This document shows, piece after piece, positions 56,179-64,000 of a DNA stretch of 64,000 nt (position 1 is the first letter of the stretch; every line of letters begins with the position of its first letter). Location of the stretch: assembly GCA_902563075.1 (NCBI GenBank), contig CACEWC010000003.1, forward strand, positions 1,324 to 65,323. The letters are read 5' to 3'. The notes under the pieces are model-generated. The model was not told the origin of the DNA. It was given only the letters and a program-made list of their open reading frames with translations, and did not search any database. Position numbers and translations under genes: made by a program. The DNA comes from an uncultured Pelagibacteraceae bacterium. Lineage in GTDB: Bacteria > Pseudomonadota > Alphaproteobacteria > Pelagibacterales > Pelagibacteraceae.

Positions 56179-57463
56179 AATAGTTAACATTGCAATTGTT
56201 GGTTTGGGTCAAGTAGGCATTTATCTTTACAACGAATTAAGGTTAAAAAAAAAAGAAATAGAAATAAAAACAGGAAAAAAGATAAATATCGTTGCAATTT
56301 CTGCAAAAAATAAAAATAAAAAAAGAAAGTACAATATTAATAGGAAAATCTTATATACTAATCCTCTCAAAATTTTAAAAGAAAAAAAGATAGATATTTT
56401 ATTTGAGTCTATTGGTCAATCTGATGGAATTTCAAAAAAAATTGTTGTAATGGCTTTAAAGAATAAGATTAACGTTATTACACCAAATAAAGCTTTAATT
56501 TCAAAACACGGTAATGAATTAGCTAAATTAGCTGAGAAGAATAATGTTAATTTAGAATTTGAAGCATCTGTTGCTGGAGGAATTCCAATACTTAGAACAA
56601 TTAAAGAGGGTTTAGCTACAAATAAGATAAAGAAAGTCTATGGAATTTTAAATGGAACAACTAATTATATTCTAACAGAGATGGAAAATTCAAATGAGAC
56701 TTTTGATAAAGTCTTAAAAAAAGCTCAAGAACTTGGTTATGCTGAACCAGGTAATCCTAAATTAGATTTGAATGGTTTTGATGCTTTTGCAAAAGTAAGG
56801 ATTTTATCAGCACTTGCATTCAATAATAAAATTTCACATCATAAATGTATAATGGAAGGTATAGAAAATATTGACTTAAAAGATATCAAAATTGCAAATC
56901 AATTAAATCTTAGAATTAAGTTACTTGGTATATGTGAAATGATAAATAATCGTTTATTTGAAACTGTTCATCCATGTTTAGTTAGTAAAGACACATACAT
57001 AGGTAATGTAAATGGAGTTATGAACGCTGTTATTACGGAGGGAAAGCCCGTTGGTGAGAGCATACTTCAAGGGGAGGGCGCAGGACCAGGACCTACTTCA
57101 TCTTCTTTATTATCTGATTTATTATCTATTCTAAGAGGAAATATAAAATATCCCTTTGGAATTTCTTCAAATAAAAGAAAAGTTGTAAAGGCTTTTAATA
57201 ATGATGACTACTCAAATTCTCTATATTTAAGATTTGAAGTTAAAGATAAACAAGGTGTTTTATCCTCTATAACTAATCGACTAGCTAAATATAGAATGTC
57301 TGTAAAAAGAATTATACAAACACCTGATAAAAAAAGAAATTCAGCTACTATTGTTATAATTACCCATAAAACATCTGAAAAAAATGCAAGAAATTGTTTA
57401 TCTATATTTAGAAAAAATAAAAATATTCTTAAATTTCCAACATTAATTAGACTATATAGTTAA
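56171..57463 (+). CDS. hom: Homoserine dehydrogenase with C-terminal ACT domain
   Basis: IVGLGQVG, FEASVAGGIP, GILNGTTNYIL, AQELGYAE, GAGPGPT. Confidence 0.95.
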   Translation: MNKIVNIAIVGLGQVGIYLYNELRLKKKEIEIKTGKKINIVAISAKNKNKKRKYNINRKILYTNPLKILKEKKIDILFESIGQSDGISKKIVVMALKNKINVITPNKALISKHGNELAKLAEKNNVNLEFEASVAGGIPILRTIKEGLATNKIKKVYGILNGTTNYILTEMENSNETFDKVLKKAQELGYAEPGNPKLDLNGFDAFAKVRILSALAFNNKISHHKCIMEGIENIDLKDIKIANQLNLRIKLLGICEMINNRLFETVHPCLVSKDTYIGNVNGVMNAVITEGKPVGESILQGEGAGPGPTSSSLLSDLLSILRGNIKYPFGISSNKRKVVKAFNNDDYSNSLYLRFEVKDKQGVLSSITNRLAKYRMSVKRIIQTPDKKRNSATIVIITHKTSEKNARNCLSIFRKNKNILKFPTLIRLYS

Positions 57464-59784: not shown

Positions 59785-60060
59785 CTAAATAGGAGCTTTT
59801 TCAGATCTTAATAATTTTAGCTTTTTCTTGGTTCCACCTATTCCAGAGTAACCTCCAAGCCCTCCATCTGACCTAATTACTCTATGACAAGGTATTTTAG
59901 GGGCATATGGGTTTTTGGCACAGGCATTAGCTACAGCTCTAGCTGATTTAGGGCTTTTTATGCCAATAGCCACCTGTTTATAGGTTTTTACCTCACCTTT
60001 TTGAATGGTTTTGAGATATTTCCAAACTTTTAATTGAAATTTTGTGCCTTTAAGTTTCAT
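59785..60060 (-). CDS. ogt: Minimal O6-methylguanine-DNA methyltransferase (C-terminal domain only)
   Basis: GTKFQLKVW, GEVKTY, ARAVANAC..NP, active-site IPCHRVI, LGGYSG. Confidence 0.92.
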   Translation of the reverse strand: MKLKGTKFQLKVWKYLKTIQKGEVKTYKQVAIGIKSPKSARAVANACAKNPYAPKIPCHRVIRSDGGLGGYSGIGGTKKKLKLLRSEKAPI

Positions 60061-60069
60061 TATTGGCTA

Positions 60070-60251
60070 AAAACCCCTGTTTCCTTGCACTTTTAAGGGT
60101 GCAAAGAACAGTTGTTTTGGCACGTCGTTGATGCGCTACCGCCATGCCTCCCGCTCCACATGTTCAGCGATGCTTTGTGAAGCTTTCTGCCCCCTGGAAT
60201 TGTACCTCTCGGCTTTTCTCCAATTGGCCAGTTAAGAGTTGCCCCTTAATT
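60070..60251 (-). ncRNA. Multi-hairpin structured RNA directly upstream of ogt, family not assigned
   Basis: GC-enriched island with five consecutive stems, two GNRA tetraloops (GCAA, GAGA) and G-U pairs that work only on the minus strand. Confidence 0.78.
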
Positions 60252-60344
60252 CATATTTAGCTTATCAAATACAGATTTTTAAATGTATCACTTTTTAGGT
60301 GATTTTGTTATTTTTCTCATTTCCTTGTGAACAGTGGGGATAAA

Positions 60345-60521: not shown

Positions 60522-60563
60522 AATTTTTAATTTAAACTATTGACATTAGAAATCACTTGATAT

Positions 60564-60598
60564 ATTACTAATGATAATTAATTGTTATCAATAGTAAT
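60564..60598. other. lox-like putative recombination site, 14-7-14 inverted repeat
   Basis: ATTACTAATGATAA-TTAATTG-TTATCAATAGTAAT; arms match 13/14; ends 3 nt before the recombinase ATG. Confidence 0.75.
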
Positions 60599-60601
60599 CA
60601 T

Positions 60602-61555
60602 ATGAATGAACTGACAACAGACTTAAAATCGCTTCATGAGGCAACATTAAATAACCTCAAAAGCTCTAAAGCAAATAATACTCTTAGAGCTTATAAGTCG
60701 GACTTCAAAGACTTTGGAGCTTTTTGCGCAAAACATGGATTAAATTCATTGCCAACAGAGCCGAAAATAGTTTCCTTGTACCTTACCCATCTCTCTAAAA
60801 ACTCAAAAATAAGCACTTTAAGACGAAGGTTGGTTTCAATAAGTATGGTTCATAGGCTGAAAGGGCATTATCTAGACACTAAACATCCAATCATAGTTGA
60901 AAATTTAATGGGAATAAGAAGGGTTAAAGGTAGCATTCAGAAAGGTAAAAAACCTATATTAATCAATCATTTAAAATTAATTATTAATGTAATAAATGAA
61001 CAAAAAACTGAGGAAATAAAAAAACTTAGAGATAAATCGTTAATCTTAATTGGCTTTGGAGGTGGTTTTAGAAGAACTGAGCTTATTTCAATAGACCATG
61101 AGGATTTGGAATTTGTTCCTGAGGGTCTAAAAATCACTATTAAAAGATCAAAAACTGATCAATTTGGAGAAGGAATGACTAAAGGACTACCCTACTTCGA
61201 TAATGAAATTTACTGTCCTGTTACAAATCTAAAAAAATGGTTAGAAATTTCAAGAATTAAGTCTGGACCTATTTTTAGAAGATTTTCTAAAGGTTTATCA
61301 TTAACAGATAAAAGATTAACTGATCAAACTGTAGTTTTATTAATGAAACACTATTTAAATATAGCAGGTATCGAAAACAAAAATTTTGCAGGTCATAGTT
61401 TAAGATCGGGTTTTGCAACAGTAGCTGCTGATTCAGGTGCTGATGAGAGAAGCATAATGGCTATGACAGGTCACAAAACAACTCAAATGGTTAGAAGATA
61501 TATTAGAGAGGCAAATATATTTAAAAATAATGCATTAAACAAAATTAAGATATAA
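60602..61555 (+). CDS. Cre-like tyrosine recombinase
   Basis: NTLRAYKSD, STLRRRL.SI, LRDKSLIL.GF.GGFRRTEL (R), RSKTDQFGEG (K), YCPV, GHSLRSGFAT (HxxR), TGHK (H), VRRY (Y); full catalytic set. Confidence 0.92.
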   Translation: MNELTTDLKSLHEATLNNLKSSKANNTLRAYKSDFKDFGAFCAKHGLNSLPTEPKIVSLYLTHLSKNSKISTLRRRLVSISMVHRLKGHYLDTKHPIIVENLMGIRRVKGSIQKGKKPILINHLKLIINVINEQKTEEIKKLRDKSLILIGFGGGFRRTELISIDHEDLEFVPEGLKITIKRSKTDQFGEGMTKGLPYFDNEIYCPVTNLKKWLEISRIKSGPIFRRFSKGLSLTDKRLTDQTVVLLMKHYLNIAGIENKNFAGHSLRSGFATVAADSGADERSIMAMTGHKTTQMVRRYIREANIFKNNALNKIKI

Positions 61556-62402
61556 TCTTATAAAATAGATATTTTATTTTGTTAATAATTAATTCATAAA
61601 ACATTAAAATATTATGTTTTGGCTCATTTAAAAGTCCTTTGTATGGAATTATTGAATTGTTTCCTTGTAAATAATATTTTCTAAAAAAATTAGGATTAAA
61701 ACCATATTTTAATAAAAATGTTTTAGTACCATTATTCAATTTAACTTTGCCGTTTCTAGTTGTTAGTGAATTAAAATGATAAACTTTAAATTTAGATATA
61801 CCTTTAAAAACTCTTACATCATTCAACCATAATTTCATGCAAAAATCTGGATCTGATCCATCTCCAGGATTAAATTCTTCACTAAATCCACCTATTTTAT
61901 TCCACAATTCTCTATGAATTAAATGTGGTGCCCAATGAGAACTTTGTAAATCTGGGGTATTATCATCGTCACAAAATTTTAAAAATTTTTGTTCATTAAA
62001 ATTTTCTATATCATTGCCGCAATCATAATTTATTAAGCCGAATCTGGTAGAAACATTCGTTCCAGATAAATAATATAAATTATTTTGTTGTTTTTTAATT
62101 TCATTTATTAAAAAAGTATCCCAATTTTTACAAAAATACATATCATCATGGGCATATAAAATGAAATCTGTTGTAGCCAATGAAAATGCCCTATTCATTG
62201 AGGAGCATAAACCAATATTCTCATGACTTTGTGAAAATTTGATACCACTTGTTGAAATAAAATCCAATGTACCATCAGAACCATCATTAATATGAATTAT
62301 AACCTCATGTTCAAATTTAGAATTTTTTTTTAATGTTTCTAAAAAAAATTTTAAATAAGGTAAATTATTAAAAGTAGGAACTATGATTGATAATTTCATC
62401 AA
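61545..62402 (-). CDS. Glycosyltransferase family 2
   Basis: LSIIVPTFN, NDGSDGT, NIG...MN, AHDD, IGGFSEEF..G.SDPDF. Confidence 0.9.
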   Translation of the reverse strand: MMKLSIIVPTFNNLPYLKFFLETLKKNSKFEHEVIIHINDGSDGTLDFISTSGIKFSQSHENIGLCSSMNRAFSLATTDFILYAHDDMYFCKNWDTFLINEIKKQQNNLYYLSGTNVSTRFGLINYDCGNDIENFNEQKFLKFCDDDNTPDLQSSHWAPHLIHRELWNKIGGFSEEFNPGDGSDPDFCMKLWLNDVRVFKGISKFKVYHFNSLTTRNGKVKLNNGTKTFLLKYGFNPNFFRKYYLQGNNSIIPYKGLLNEPKHNILMFYELIINKIKYLFYKIIS

Positions 62403-64000
62403 TACAATATTGTTTTATTACCAAGTGATTTATCAATAATATACTTTGTAGTTTTTAACTCGTTAAATAAATCAAAATATTTTTTTTTACCATTTTTTGC
62501 TACTTTAATTCTGGATTTATCATTTTTTTTATAGAATTTGATTTTATCTGATAAATCATTAATTCCTTTGTAAAAAATTATTTCATTATTGTTGAAGAAA
62601 TCATTCATTTGTGTTTTTTTATCAATAAAAGTTAATAAGCCATTTCCCATCAAAGAAGCAATTCTATTGCTAGAATAATATTTAGTTGGCAAACCACGAC
62701 TTAAGTTTAATCCCATCTTTGAATTTACAAGAGCTTTATAAAAATTATCACCCCATATTGGCTCTTTATTTGCAAAACCGTAAAAATCATAATTTATATT
62801 GTCAATTTTTTTAATTAAATTATTTAAAAAATTAATTCTGCTGTCAGTTTTACCTTTTTTTAATTTTGCTCTATTAACACCATGGCTCATAGCATAAAAT
62901 ATGTCCTTAGTAGGATTTAATTTATAAACATCAAAACATTCTATATTACGATCAACAGGTACAAAGAAAAAATGTAAATTTTTGATTTTAGCGTTTTGCT
63001 TTTTAAATACACTTGGATCAGTCGTAATAAAATTGTGATCCACATTATTCGCATAATAAGAAATATTTTTAATATTTGTTTTAGAATAATCTAAACTCGG
63101 CATTATAGGATCTTCATTCCATTGTGAGATAATTAAAGTTTTATTAATAGATCTGAATTGATCAATAGTATCTAATTCAAGATTTTTTGTATGTCCAAAA
63201 AATAAAAAATCTGGATTATAGTTTTTAAATGTTTCAATTAAAAATTTCTGAAATTTATTAGAACTATTTTCAAATGAAAAATTTCTGTTTTGCCTTATGA
63301 AGTCTCTATCACTAATTTCTAAAACATCATGACCATTTCTAATAAATCCATTTGTAAATTTTTTTCCAAGGGAGATGTTGTACAATCGATGATTCAACTT
63401 TTGTCCAGTGTTGTAAATATTAATAATTCGTAACTTATTACGTACGAAATTTAGATTAAATTTTTGAACACAGTTTTCTCTGATTTTATCAATAAATTTT
63501 GAATTATCCTTAATAAGATGTTTTACATTTCTAAAACCTTTTTGCTGAATTTTTTTTCGATATTCAGTATTTTGAATTAATTTCTTTATTTTTAAATATA
63601 GGTTATGTGAATCTAGTTTTTTTAAAATTACACAATGGTCAGTAGTTTCAGGCAATCCTCCCCTATTAGAAATTATTGTAGCACATGCTCTAGAAGAAGA
63701 TTCTAATGCTGTCCTTCCAAATGGTTCTTCCCAGCGTGAAGGTACGACGGCTATCTCAGATTTATTTAAAAATTCAAGAACTTTTCTGTGTTTAAGAAAT
63801 CCTAATTCAAAATGATTCTCATGATTTATTATTGGTCTGCTTCTGCTTTCGTCACCAATGGAATATGCTTTCCAATCTTTAAATTCATTCAATATTTTTA
63901 TAACCGCGCCTTTATAAATGTCATAGCCTTTTGACTCATTTAGTTTACCAACAAAAGTTATTTTTTTTTCTTTTCTAAATATTCTCTTTTCTTTATGTAT
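62399..64000 (-). CDS. Fused glycosyltransferase (GT4 domain plus CgeB/Glyco_trans_1_2-like domain), 5'-truncated by window edge
   Basis: Frame open to 64000 (ITFVGKLNESKG); VPSRWEEPFGRTALE, SNRGGLPE; second domain SKMGLNLSRG, YSSNRI. Confidence 0.85.
   Translation of the reverse strand: MHKEKRIFRKEKKITFVGKLNESKGYDIYKGAVIKILNEFKDWKAYSIGDESRSRPIINHENHFELGFLKHRKVLEFLNKSEIAVVPSRWEEPFGRTALESSSRACATIISNRGGLPETTDHCVILKKLDSHNLYLKIKKLIQNTEYRKKIQQKGFRNVKHLIKDNSKFIDKIRENCVQKFNLNFVRNKLRIINIYNTGQKLNHRLYNISLGKKFTNGFIRNGHDVLEISDRDFIRQNRNFSFENSSNKFQKFLIETFKNYNPDFLFFGHTKNLELDTIDQFRSINKTLIISQWNEDPIMPSLDYSKTNIKNISYYANNVDHNFITTDPSVFKKQNAKIKNLHFFFVPVDRNIECFDVYKLNPTKDIFYAMSHGVNRAKLKKGKTDSRINFLNNLIKKIDNINYDFYGFANKEPIWGDNFYKALVNSKMGLNLSRGLPTKYYSSNRIASLMGNGLLTFIDKKTQMNDFFNNNEIIFYKGINDLSDKIKFYKKNDKSRIKVAKNGKKKYFDLFNELKTTKYIIDKSLGNKTILY

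Follow-up and report, generated by a model that had tools for sequence, protein, structure and literature searches.

The locus and its recombinase

The window analyzed here is a stretch of 64,000 nucleotides from an uncultured bacterium of the family Pelagibacteraceae, a SAR11 lineage (GenBank assembly GCA_902563075.1, contig CACEWC010000003.1, positions 1,324 to 65,323). Near its right end lies a gene for a tyrosine recombinase, preceded by a palindromic sequence that stops just short of the start codon (Table 1). An earlier note on this DNA had proposed that the two form a one-protein chromosome resolution system that may take the place of XerC/XerD and dif. The comparisons described below support that proposal. 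Because the recombinase is a core gene, its site is single and terminal, enzyme and arm types co-vary, and a sister family retains both XerC and XerD, we conclude that the recombinase and the start-codon palindrome very probably constitute the chromosome dimer resolution system of the Pelagibacteraceae, with XerC/XerD and dif likely replaced.

Table 1. Coordinates of the recombinase, its candidate site and associated predicted features in the window
Feature	Position	Strand	Basis
Cre/IntA-like tyrosine recombinase, 317 amino acids, type A	60602..61555	+	PF00589 and PF02899; model matching Cre; alignment of the catalytic residues with those of Cre
Candidate resolution site, 14-7-14 palindrome, single copy per genome	60564..60598	.	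conservation, copy number, half-site-matrix score
Left arm, type A	60564..60577	+	sequence and conservation in relatives
Asymmetric 7-bp spacer TTAATTG	60578..60584	+	121 host loci compared
Right arm, type A, 3 nt short of the start codon	60585..60598	+	sequence and conservation
Predicted -35 hexamer TTGACA	60540..60545	+	constant distance from the site
Predicted -10 hexamer TATTAC, at 17-nt spacing and partly within the left arm	60563..60568	+	present in 95 of 100 type A loci
Beta-hairpin, codons 226-237, in type A and absent from type B enzymes	61277..61312	+	aligns with Cre residues ~240-256
The window's sole GGGNAGGG (KOPS-type) motif, oriented toward the site	57071..57078	+	single motif, weak alone

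The open reading frame that starts at this ATG encodes a protein of 317 amino acids with Pfam matches to PF00589 and PF02899. Its catalytic set is intact, as had been noted: R157, K184, H265, R268, H291 and Y300 align with Cre R173, K201, H289, R292, W315 and Y324, and all six are invariant across 41 recombinase proteins. With this R-K-H-R-H/W-Y set and a catalytic domain, the protein belongs to the tyrosine recombinases. Among protein family models it scores far under the cut-offs for XerC, XerD, XerS and XerA (70 and 60 bits on the XerC and XerD models, and 39.9 bits on the XerS model, against a cut-off of 267). A search with the single sequence gave XerD the best score, in the catalytic domain, and aligned Cre across both domains. 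When a profile of 36 sequences was used, Cre ranked first, with a match across positions 25-291, and XerH came below it. An AlphaFold model of the protein (mean pLDDT 83) retrieved only Cre or Tre chains as top Foldseek matches, at a TM score of about 0.7, compared with 0.52-0.61 for XerH. The recombinase is a Cre/IntA-like enzyme outside the Xer protein families tested, in agreement with the original assignment to the Cre family rather than to XerC/D; it has the Cre fold in both domains and a symmetric arm-spacer-arm site beside its gene, like other simple recombinases of this kind.

The palindrome at the start codon

The site reads ATTACTAATGATAA-TTAATTG-TTATCAATAGTAAT, with 13 of the 14 arm positions complementary, and its sequence, coordinates and spacing from the ATG are exactly as first described. 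By itself the palindrome is weak evidence, because the 787-kb assembly contains three 14-7-14 repeats with one mismatch, where 20 local shuffles of it contained 0.75 on average; such repeats are only modestly rare. This one stands above chance because it lies at the start of the assembly's only PF00589 gene and is conserved together with its spacer. Site and spacer are conserved in all 81 close loci (the best 80 of 544 matches plus the locus itself), whereas the flanks diverge, and they are also kept in 40 of 40 loci picked across eight genera, as the proposal of conserved arms around a fixed 7-bp spacer had anticipated. The 121 host loci have the spacers TTAATTG (87), TTAATGG (28) and other one- or two-base variants (6).

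The site is also single. A half-site-matrix scan of the whole assembly gave it the best score, 39.1, with the next best at 16.4. An exact match to the site occurs exactly once in 185 of 284 genomes of the genus and twice in none, and a control pattern gave no matches; the 99 genomes with no exact match include type B genomes (see below), variants and gaps. A looser pattern that allowed three mismatches returned background, with control matches in many genomes, and was excluded from this count. The earlier note had seen no phage, plasmid or tRNA attachment context at the locus. For the chromosome this holds, and a tRNA attachment context is rejected because the only tRNA of the window lies 32 kb from the site; for phages it does not hold, since phages carry the site.

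The note had further placed a TTGACA hexamer upstream, with a possible -10 box on the left arm. The hexamer is there. Its distance to the arm core is 27 nt in 98 of the 100 type A loci and 25-28 nt in all 21 type B loci, and with this fixed distance the predicted -10 box falls on the left arm. One could therefore argue that the palindrome serves a domesticated integrase, one with another chromosomal role or none, as a mere operator for autorepression, since it overlaps the predicted -10 box, fills the 5' untranslated region and keeps its distance from TTGACA, and since two frameshifted copies of the gene are known. An operator, however, needs neither a position at the terminus nor alternation with XerCD between families, the catalytic residues are invariant in the 41 proteins, and in phages the site is present where the gene is not. 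We consider this explanation very improbable.

Distribution of the recombinase and of XerC/XerD

A profile search found the recombinase in 116 of 123 Pelagibacteraceae genomes and in none of 27 genomes of a sister family in the same order; outside the family, a class-wide sample of 298 genomes yielded weaker homologues in six. Exactly one PF00589 match was found in 22 of 36 single-contig genomes, although such matches per genome are not copy numbers, and the one PF00589 gene in the window's own assembly, which is 67% complete, is this recombinase. Two unpublished genomes, G050 and G199, contribute solely to the tallies of PF00589 matches, profile matches and site matches, and none of the claims depends on these two by themselves. 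The XerD model TIGR02225 gave a best score of at most 82 bits in each of 22 family genomes, a set chosen to include ones with extra recombinases. Each of the five sister-family genomes tested, out of the 27, gave 314-322 bits for XerD and 300-315 bits for XerC. This score gap was used in place of the NCBIfam cut-off for XerD, which is a poor test because the sister-family XerD also falls just under it. By model scores, then, no XerC/XerD pair was found in the Pelagibacteraceae genomes searched (22 genomes for XerD), which is what replacement of XerCD/dif had led one to expect. The counts of 116/123 and 0/27, together with the score gap, argue that the recombinase and XerC/XerD alternate between the two families.

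In PMC2731167, Pelagibacter ubique is listed as an organism with no dif/Xer; Pelagibacter is not named in the main text of PMC3025954, and passages of PMC11769102 and PMC11876622 were not relevant here.

Homologues of the recombinase occur in 74 plasmid records, with 34-43% identity among the 25 listed, which suggests that the module was captured from mobile DNA; its source was perhaps an IntA-like resolvase carried by a plasmid or island. A homologue protein search returned close SAR11 proteins only.

Position of the site at the replication terminus

The distance of the site from parB was determined in 25 complete genomes with exact lengths, out of 36, and in 24 of them it amounts to 0.45-0.50 of the genome. 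In genome G084, cumulative GC skew over the region 840-1,140 kb peaks at 996.0 kb and the site lies at 998.8 kb; near 1,000 kb the GC skew reverses, as does gene orientation, with roughly 60% of that genome sampled. A further marker is the octamer GGGNAGGG, which we take to be an FtsK-orienting polar sequence (KOPS)-type motif. Of its 155 occurrences in nine genomes, 139 are oriented toward the site, and the interval that best describes its switch in polarity contains the site in eight of the nine, with the narrowest intervals measuring 5.4 kb (G028) and 8.6 kb (G084). The suggestion that the site might lie at the terminus was thus borne out by its place opposite parB, by the G084 skew peak and by the polarity flip of GGGNAGGG. 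GC skew within the window alone is uninformative, since the contig ends 3.6 kb past the site.

An FtsK gamma domain was found in five of five genomes, and recA in the window's own assembly. In most of the 80 close loci, neighboring genes run toward the recombinase from both sides. The Pelagibacteraceae show what is seen in single-recombinase dimer resolution, namely one terminal site per chromosome (with one positional outlier in 25) and a sole conserved recombinase with no XerCD. As a separate observation, gene blocks are swapped across the recombinase in five loci (L043, L046, L065, L069 and L072), as expected for inversions centered on the terminus.

Two types of enzyme and arm

Two versions of the module can be distinguished. 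Type A enzymes (317-334 amino acids) pair with arms of the form TACTANY-GATAA, and type B enzymes (301-310 amino acids) with TTCC-GATAA, the left and right arms changing jointly between types. On a tree of the 41 proteins, arm type changes twice, compared with 14 times when shuffled; one of the two changes involves two long branches. Both types are present within each of the genera g1, g2, g4 and g9, and the module therefore likely moves or is exchanged in place. Residue Q242 of the window's enzyme aligns to Cre R259, which is presumably a base-reading residue. Because type B enzymes have no hairpin at codons 226-237 and carry S/K in place of T240/Q242, the hairpin and these two positions are the predicted seat of arm specificity.

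The type B arms lead to a known system. The attA site of Rhizobium etli is printed in PMC4928290 as TCCGATAA-GCATTAC-TTATCGGA, a 23-bp att at which IntA carries out both integration and excision, and the type B arms are identical to these experimentally used arms; the earlier note had given the IntA core GATAA-N7-TTATC correctly. Its further idea of a new, orthogonal enzyme-site pair needs care, since the equality of type B and IntA att arms makes orthogonality to IntA doubtful. A phage type B site used as query retrieves rhizobial plasmids including p42a, where the site precedes the gene of a 382-amino acid integrase, 24-25% identical to the recombinase, by about 110 nt; the spacer in the p42a record is one base off the spacer printed in PMC4928290. 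More broadly, a GATAA-N6-8-TTATC palindrome lies just upstream in 7 of 13 non-SAR11 homologue loci, which had been picked by protein. These palindromes of IntA and the homologues are the best indirect support for the site as the presumptive substrate of the enzyme. No such site was found within 600 bp of the 314-amino acid homologue on a Coxiella plasmid.

Two of the plasmid loci deserve separate mention. Near-perfect palindromes with the GATAA core lie upstream of recombinases on the Protochlamydia plasmid pPNK (L332:284-320) and on a Skermanella plasmid (L334:175-210). Their formats are 15-7-15 and 15-8-15, the recombinases are 39-40% identical, and both are candidate enzyme-site pairs.

Copies of the site in phage genomes

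Type A sites with a 7-bp spacer occur in 47 viral contigs, with a 6-bp spacer in 19 and with an 8-bp spacer in 18. A slightly stricter pattern with control spacers gave six matches for lengths of 9-14 bp and five for 0-5 bp, or 11 for twelve lengths. Type B sites, searched with the 7-bp spacer only, occur in 52 viral contigs. The location of these copies is constant. Terminase genes lie beside 46 of the 47 type A and 43 of the 52 type B sites, and in all 42 measured loci the site is 188-1,087 bp before the start of terL. The terminases belong to HTVC106P-, HTVC010P- and HTVC023P/027P-like lineages, pelagiphages described as lytic and without integrase (PMC8477408; 10.1101/2019.12.14.876532). 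No recombinase or host genes were found within 3 kb of the site in the 47 type A loci, and PF00589 was matched in one of 50 whole viral records, mostly fragments. The phage copies are thus site mimics with no integrase of their own, as in the integrative mobile elements exploiting Xer (IMEX), with most records being fragments and three being complete isolates. Type A and B sites lie within 80 bp of each other in 14/47, 6/19 and 7/18 of the type A sets (7-, 6- and 8-bp spacers) and in 14/52 of the type B set; these sets overlap. The tandem sites are mostly 29-40 bp apart, and none of 120 host loci has such a tandem.

Two side observations concern these contigs. The viral contigs L228, L229 and L230 (50-61% GC) have type B sites with no pelagiphage terminase nearby, and perhaps come from phages of other hosts with IntA-like enzymes. 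The only type A match with no nearby terminase, L090 (G159), is also the sole record with a PF00589 gene of its own, and is probably unrelated.

What might the phages gain? In phage P1, the distance between lox and pac is 4 kb, and the annotation of cre is cyclization recombinase; the ends of an HTVC010P-type genome have been placed at terL (PMC10504331). We put at about even odds the view that phages use their copies to recruit the host enzyme at genome ends. Of the specific readings, closing or monomerizing the phage genome is slightly favored. That the copies are decoys or tethers, which engage the host enzyme so as to prevent division of the host or to position phage DNA without recombination, is rather unlikely: such a role would suit the varied spacer length (6-8 bp) and sequence and the tandem sites 29-40 bp apart, but lengths beyond 6-8 bp are rare in phages, that range is the one used by working Xer sites (PMC5357621) and by this recombinase family's own sites, and the constant place before terL suits a role at genome ends. 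Integration is somewhat less likely still, and a phage protein that recognizes the same motif is improbable.

Integration can also be considered for the host pair itself, which on this account would mainly be an integration platform, its enzyme taking up or rearranging gene cassettes or phages at the site. IntA and the Legionella element LME-1 provide precedents, and variable glycosyltransferase cassettes do lie directly behind the gene, but beyond its 3' end and away from the site. Likewise, the phage sites resemble the host site, and a spacer identical to one from a host occurs in 12 of the 52 type B and 3 of the 47 type A copies; most phage spacers, however, differ in sequence or length. 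No genome of the 284 has two sites, no second site was found near the gene in 80 loci examined, and no phage-host hybrid was found; we regard a platform as very unlikely. Searches for hybrids gave a single match among viral contig proteins, unrelated and with 64% GC, and two metagenome patterns returned nothing in one case and three ordinary host loci in the other. No integrated phage form was found in genomes, loci, viral contigs or metagenome patterns, in searches that were narrow.

A model for dimer resolution and the evidence against it

In the dimer resolution model, two recombinase monomers would bind each site, and four would hold both sites of a chromosome dimer together in a synapse; strand exchange across the 7-bp spacer would then split the dimer. 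FtsK would probably only bring the sites together, as it does in E. coli when loxP is substituted for dif. On its site, the enzyme would also mask the -10 box and the 5' end of the recombinase mRNA, and in this way the gene would repress itself; the whole module may go back to an IntA-like resolvase from a plasmid or island. A less firm proposal is that copies of the site beside the packaging genes let some lytic pelagiphages have their DNA closed or monomerized by the host enzyme, in the way that P1 uses its Cre, and that tandem A and B sites serve hosts of either type.

Several results weigh against dimer resolution. The conservation of the spacer may reflect a preference of the enzyme, or the promoter, rather than homology for strand exchange, and the IntA spacer is similar. 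The origin was represented by parB as a stand-in, and in one genome of the 25 (G063) the site (C1:662156) lies at 0.10 of the genome, or 141 kb, from parB; 11 of 13 KOPS there still point toward the site, and either unbalanced replichores or a misassembly could be responsible. Genome G027 is a weak case, with 8 of 13 GGGNAGGG motifs oriented toward the site. A control motif read in reverse is equally frequent and also polarized in the G084 samples (10/13), and therefore GGGNAGGG marks the replichores, with a polarity that is not specific to KOPS and is no demonstration of FtsK loading. Seven of the 123 family genomes, all multi-contig assemblies, gave no profile match, and the gene is split in two frames in two complete genomes (G133, C1:571219-572134, and G232, C1:595396-596348), either through sequencing error or because the gene is dispensable. 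A 2026 preprint (10.64898/2026.10.07.757358) mentions XerC and XerD for Pelagibacterales genomes from the Arctic; these are likely labels, since relatives of this recombinase are labeled "XerD" in one source. Finally, the phage sites are patchy. Of 15 pelagiphage records, three examined whole and 12 only near the terminase, four have strong sites (Greip, HTVC106P, HTVC035P and HTVC100P), two have weak ones (HTVC024P and Lederberg) and nine have none, and whole-record site searches of HTVC010P, HTVC023P, HTVC027P, HTVC011P and HTVC019P gave nothing. With so many records lacking it, the site is optional for phages.

If the dimer resolution model is correct, SAR11, whose member P. ubique is cited as a free-living organism with no dif/Xer (PMC2731167), now has a testable resolution system and an exact marker of the terminus. 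The system would be a natural counterpart of the engineered swap of loxP for dif in E. coli and an instance in which Xer gave way to an enzyme from a mobile element. For abundant marine phages, the copies of the site suggest a dependence on the host that can be tested; the two enzyme/arm types offer a natural specificity switch of use in recombinase engineering. The broadest version of the argument, that a captured, two-type Cre/IntA resolvase replaced XerCD/dif wholesale, that three unrelated "strictly lytic" pelagiphage lineages, with sites for one type or both at their genome ends, outsource a P1-style cyclization or monomerization to it, and that enzyme type is a host-range or fitness factor, is more tentative, and we hold it at somewhat less than an even chance.

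Neighboring genes

A complete IMES-2 RNA (60117-60256, minus strand; Rfam RF02035, 143.6 bits) lies between an ogt-like gene and the recombinase promoter. The ogt-like gene (59785-60060, minus strand) encodes a 91-amino acid protein with the PF01035 domain only, and it recurs as the upstream neighbor in 73 open reading frames across 80 loci. Neither is regarded as part of the module; they are neighbors, and nothing links either to the site. Downstream, both in the window (61545-64000, minus strand) and in relatives (L002-L081), variable cassettes for glycosyltransferases and sugar modification lie tail-to-tail with the recombinase and form a small flexible island at the terminus.

Comparison with known systems

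A literature search found no paper describing this module, with most subscription papers and supplements outside its reach. Domestication of integrases is discussed in PMC8138268, and a mobile enzyme that displaces Xer would run against the usual vertical pattern described there.

Two of the systems that can be compared are themselves mobile. The IntA/att system of R. etli p42a shares the type B arms, a 7-bp center and a site upstream of the gene, and IntA is likewise a single, bidirectional enzyme; it differs in its length of 382 amino acids, its 24-25% identity and its role in plasmid cointegration rather than in a core chromosomal function. Cre/loxP of P1 resembles the SAR11 pair in fold, catalytic positions and the site near the gene, and P1 lox lies near pac and terminase genes. 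Cre-loxP can replace XerCD-dif in E. coli, with FtsK (PMC2680272). Identity to Cre is 20%, however, the arms are different, and the SAR11 enzyme is chromosomal, whereas the phages carry the site only. The phage copies themselves recall IMEX and the Xer sites of plasmids (the CTX, VGJ and TLC phages; cer and psi), in which mobile DNA carries sites for host recombinases with 6-8-bp centers (PMC5357621). Unlike IMEX, the SAR11 carriers are tailed lytic phages with double-stranded DNA, no integration was seen, and two site types stand in tandem.

Other systems are related by function. XerS/difSL of streptococci and lactococci and XerH/difH of Helicobacter and Campylobacter also have one recombinase, a gene beside its site and a site at the terminus (PMC5357621), but XerS and XerH are Xer-subgroup proteins of 354-362 amino acids with 11-bp or 6-10-bp centers; the SAR11 enzyme scores just 39.9 bits on the XerS model and has a fold nearer to Cre than to XerH. 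XerL/dif of the Legionellales is a single-recombinase system that homology searches had missed in a group listed as lacking Xer; its arms are symmetric, it has a mobile-element mimic, and XerL is sufficient alone (PMC9765430). The catalytic tyrosine of XerL (Lpg1867) is at 387-389, the arms are 10 bp and orthologues are reported only in Legionellales. The SAR11 system has Y300, arms of 13-14 bp and a gene fused to its site; by its size the enzyme is unlikely to be a XerL orthologue, and the Coxiella plasmid homologue, at 314 amino acids, is too short to be XerL. In kind, the closest precedent is XerL, and the SAR11 system very likely works as XerS, XerH and XerL do, yet with a Cre/IntA-like enzyme.
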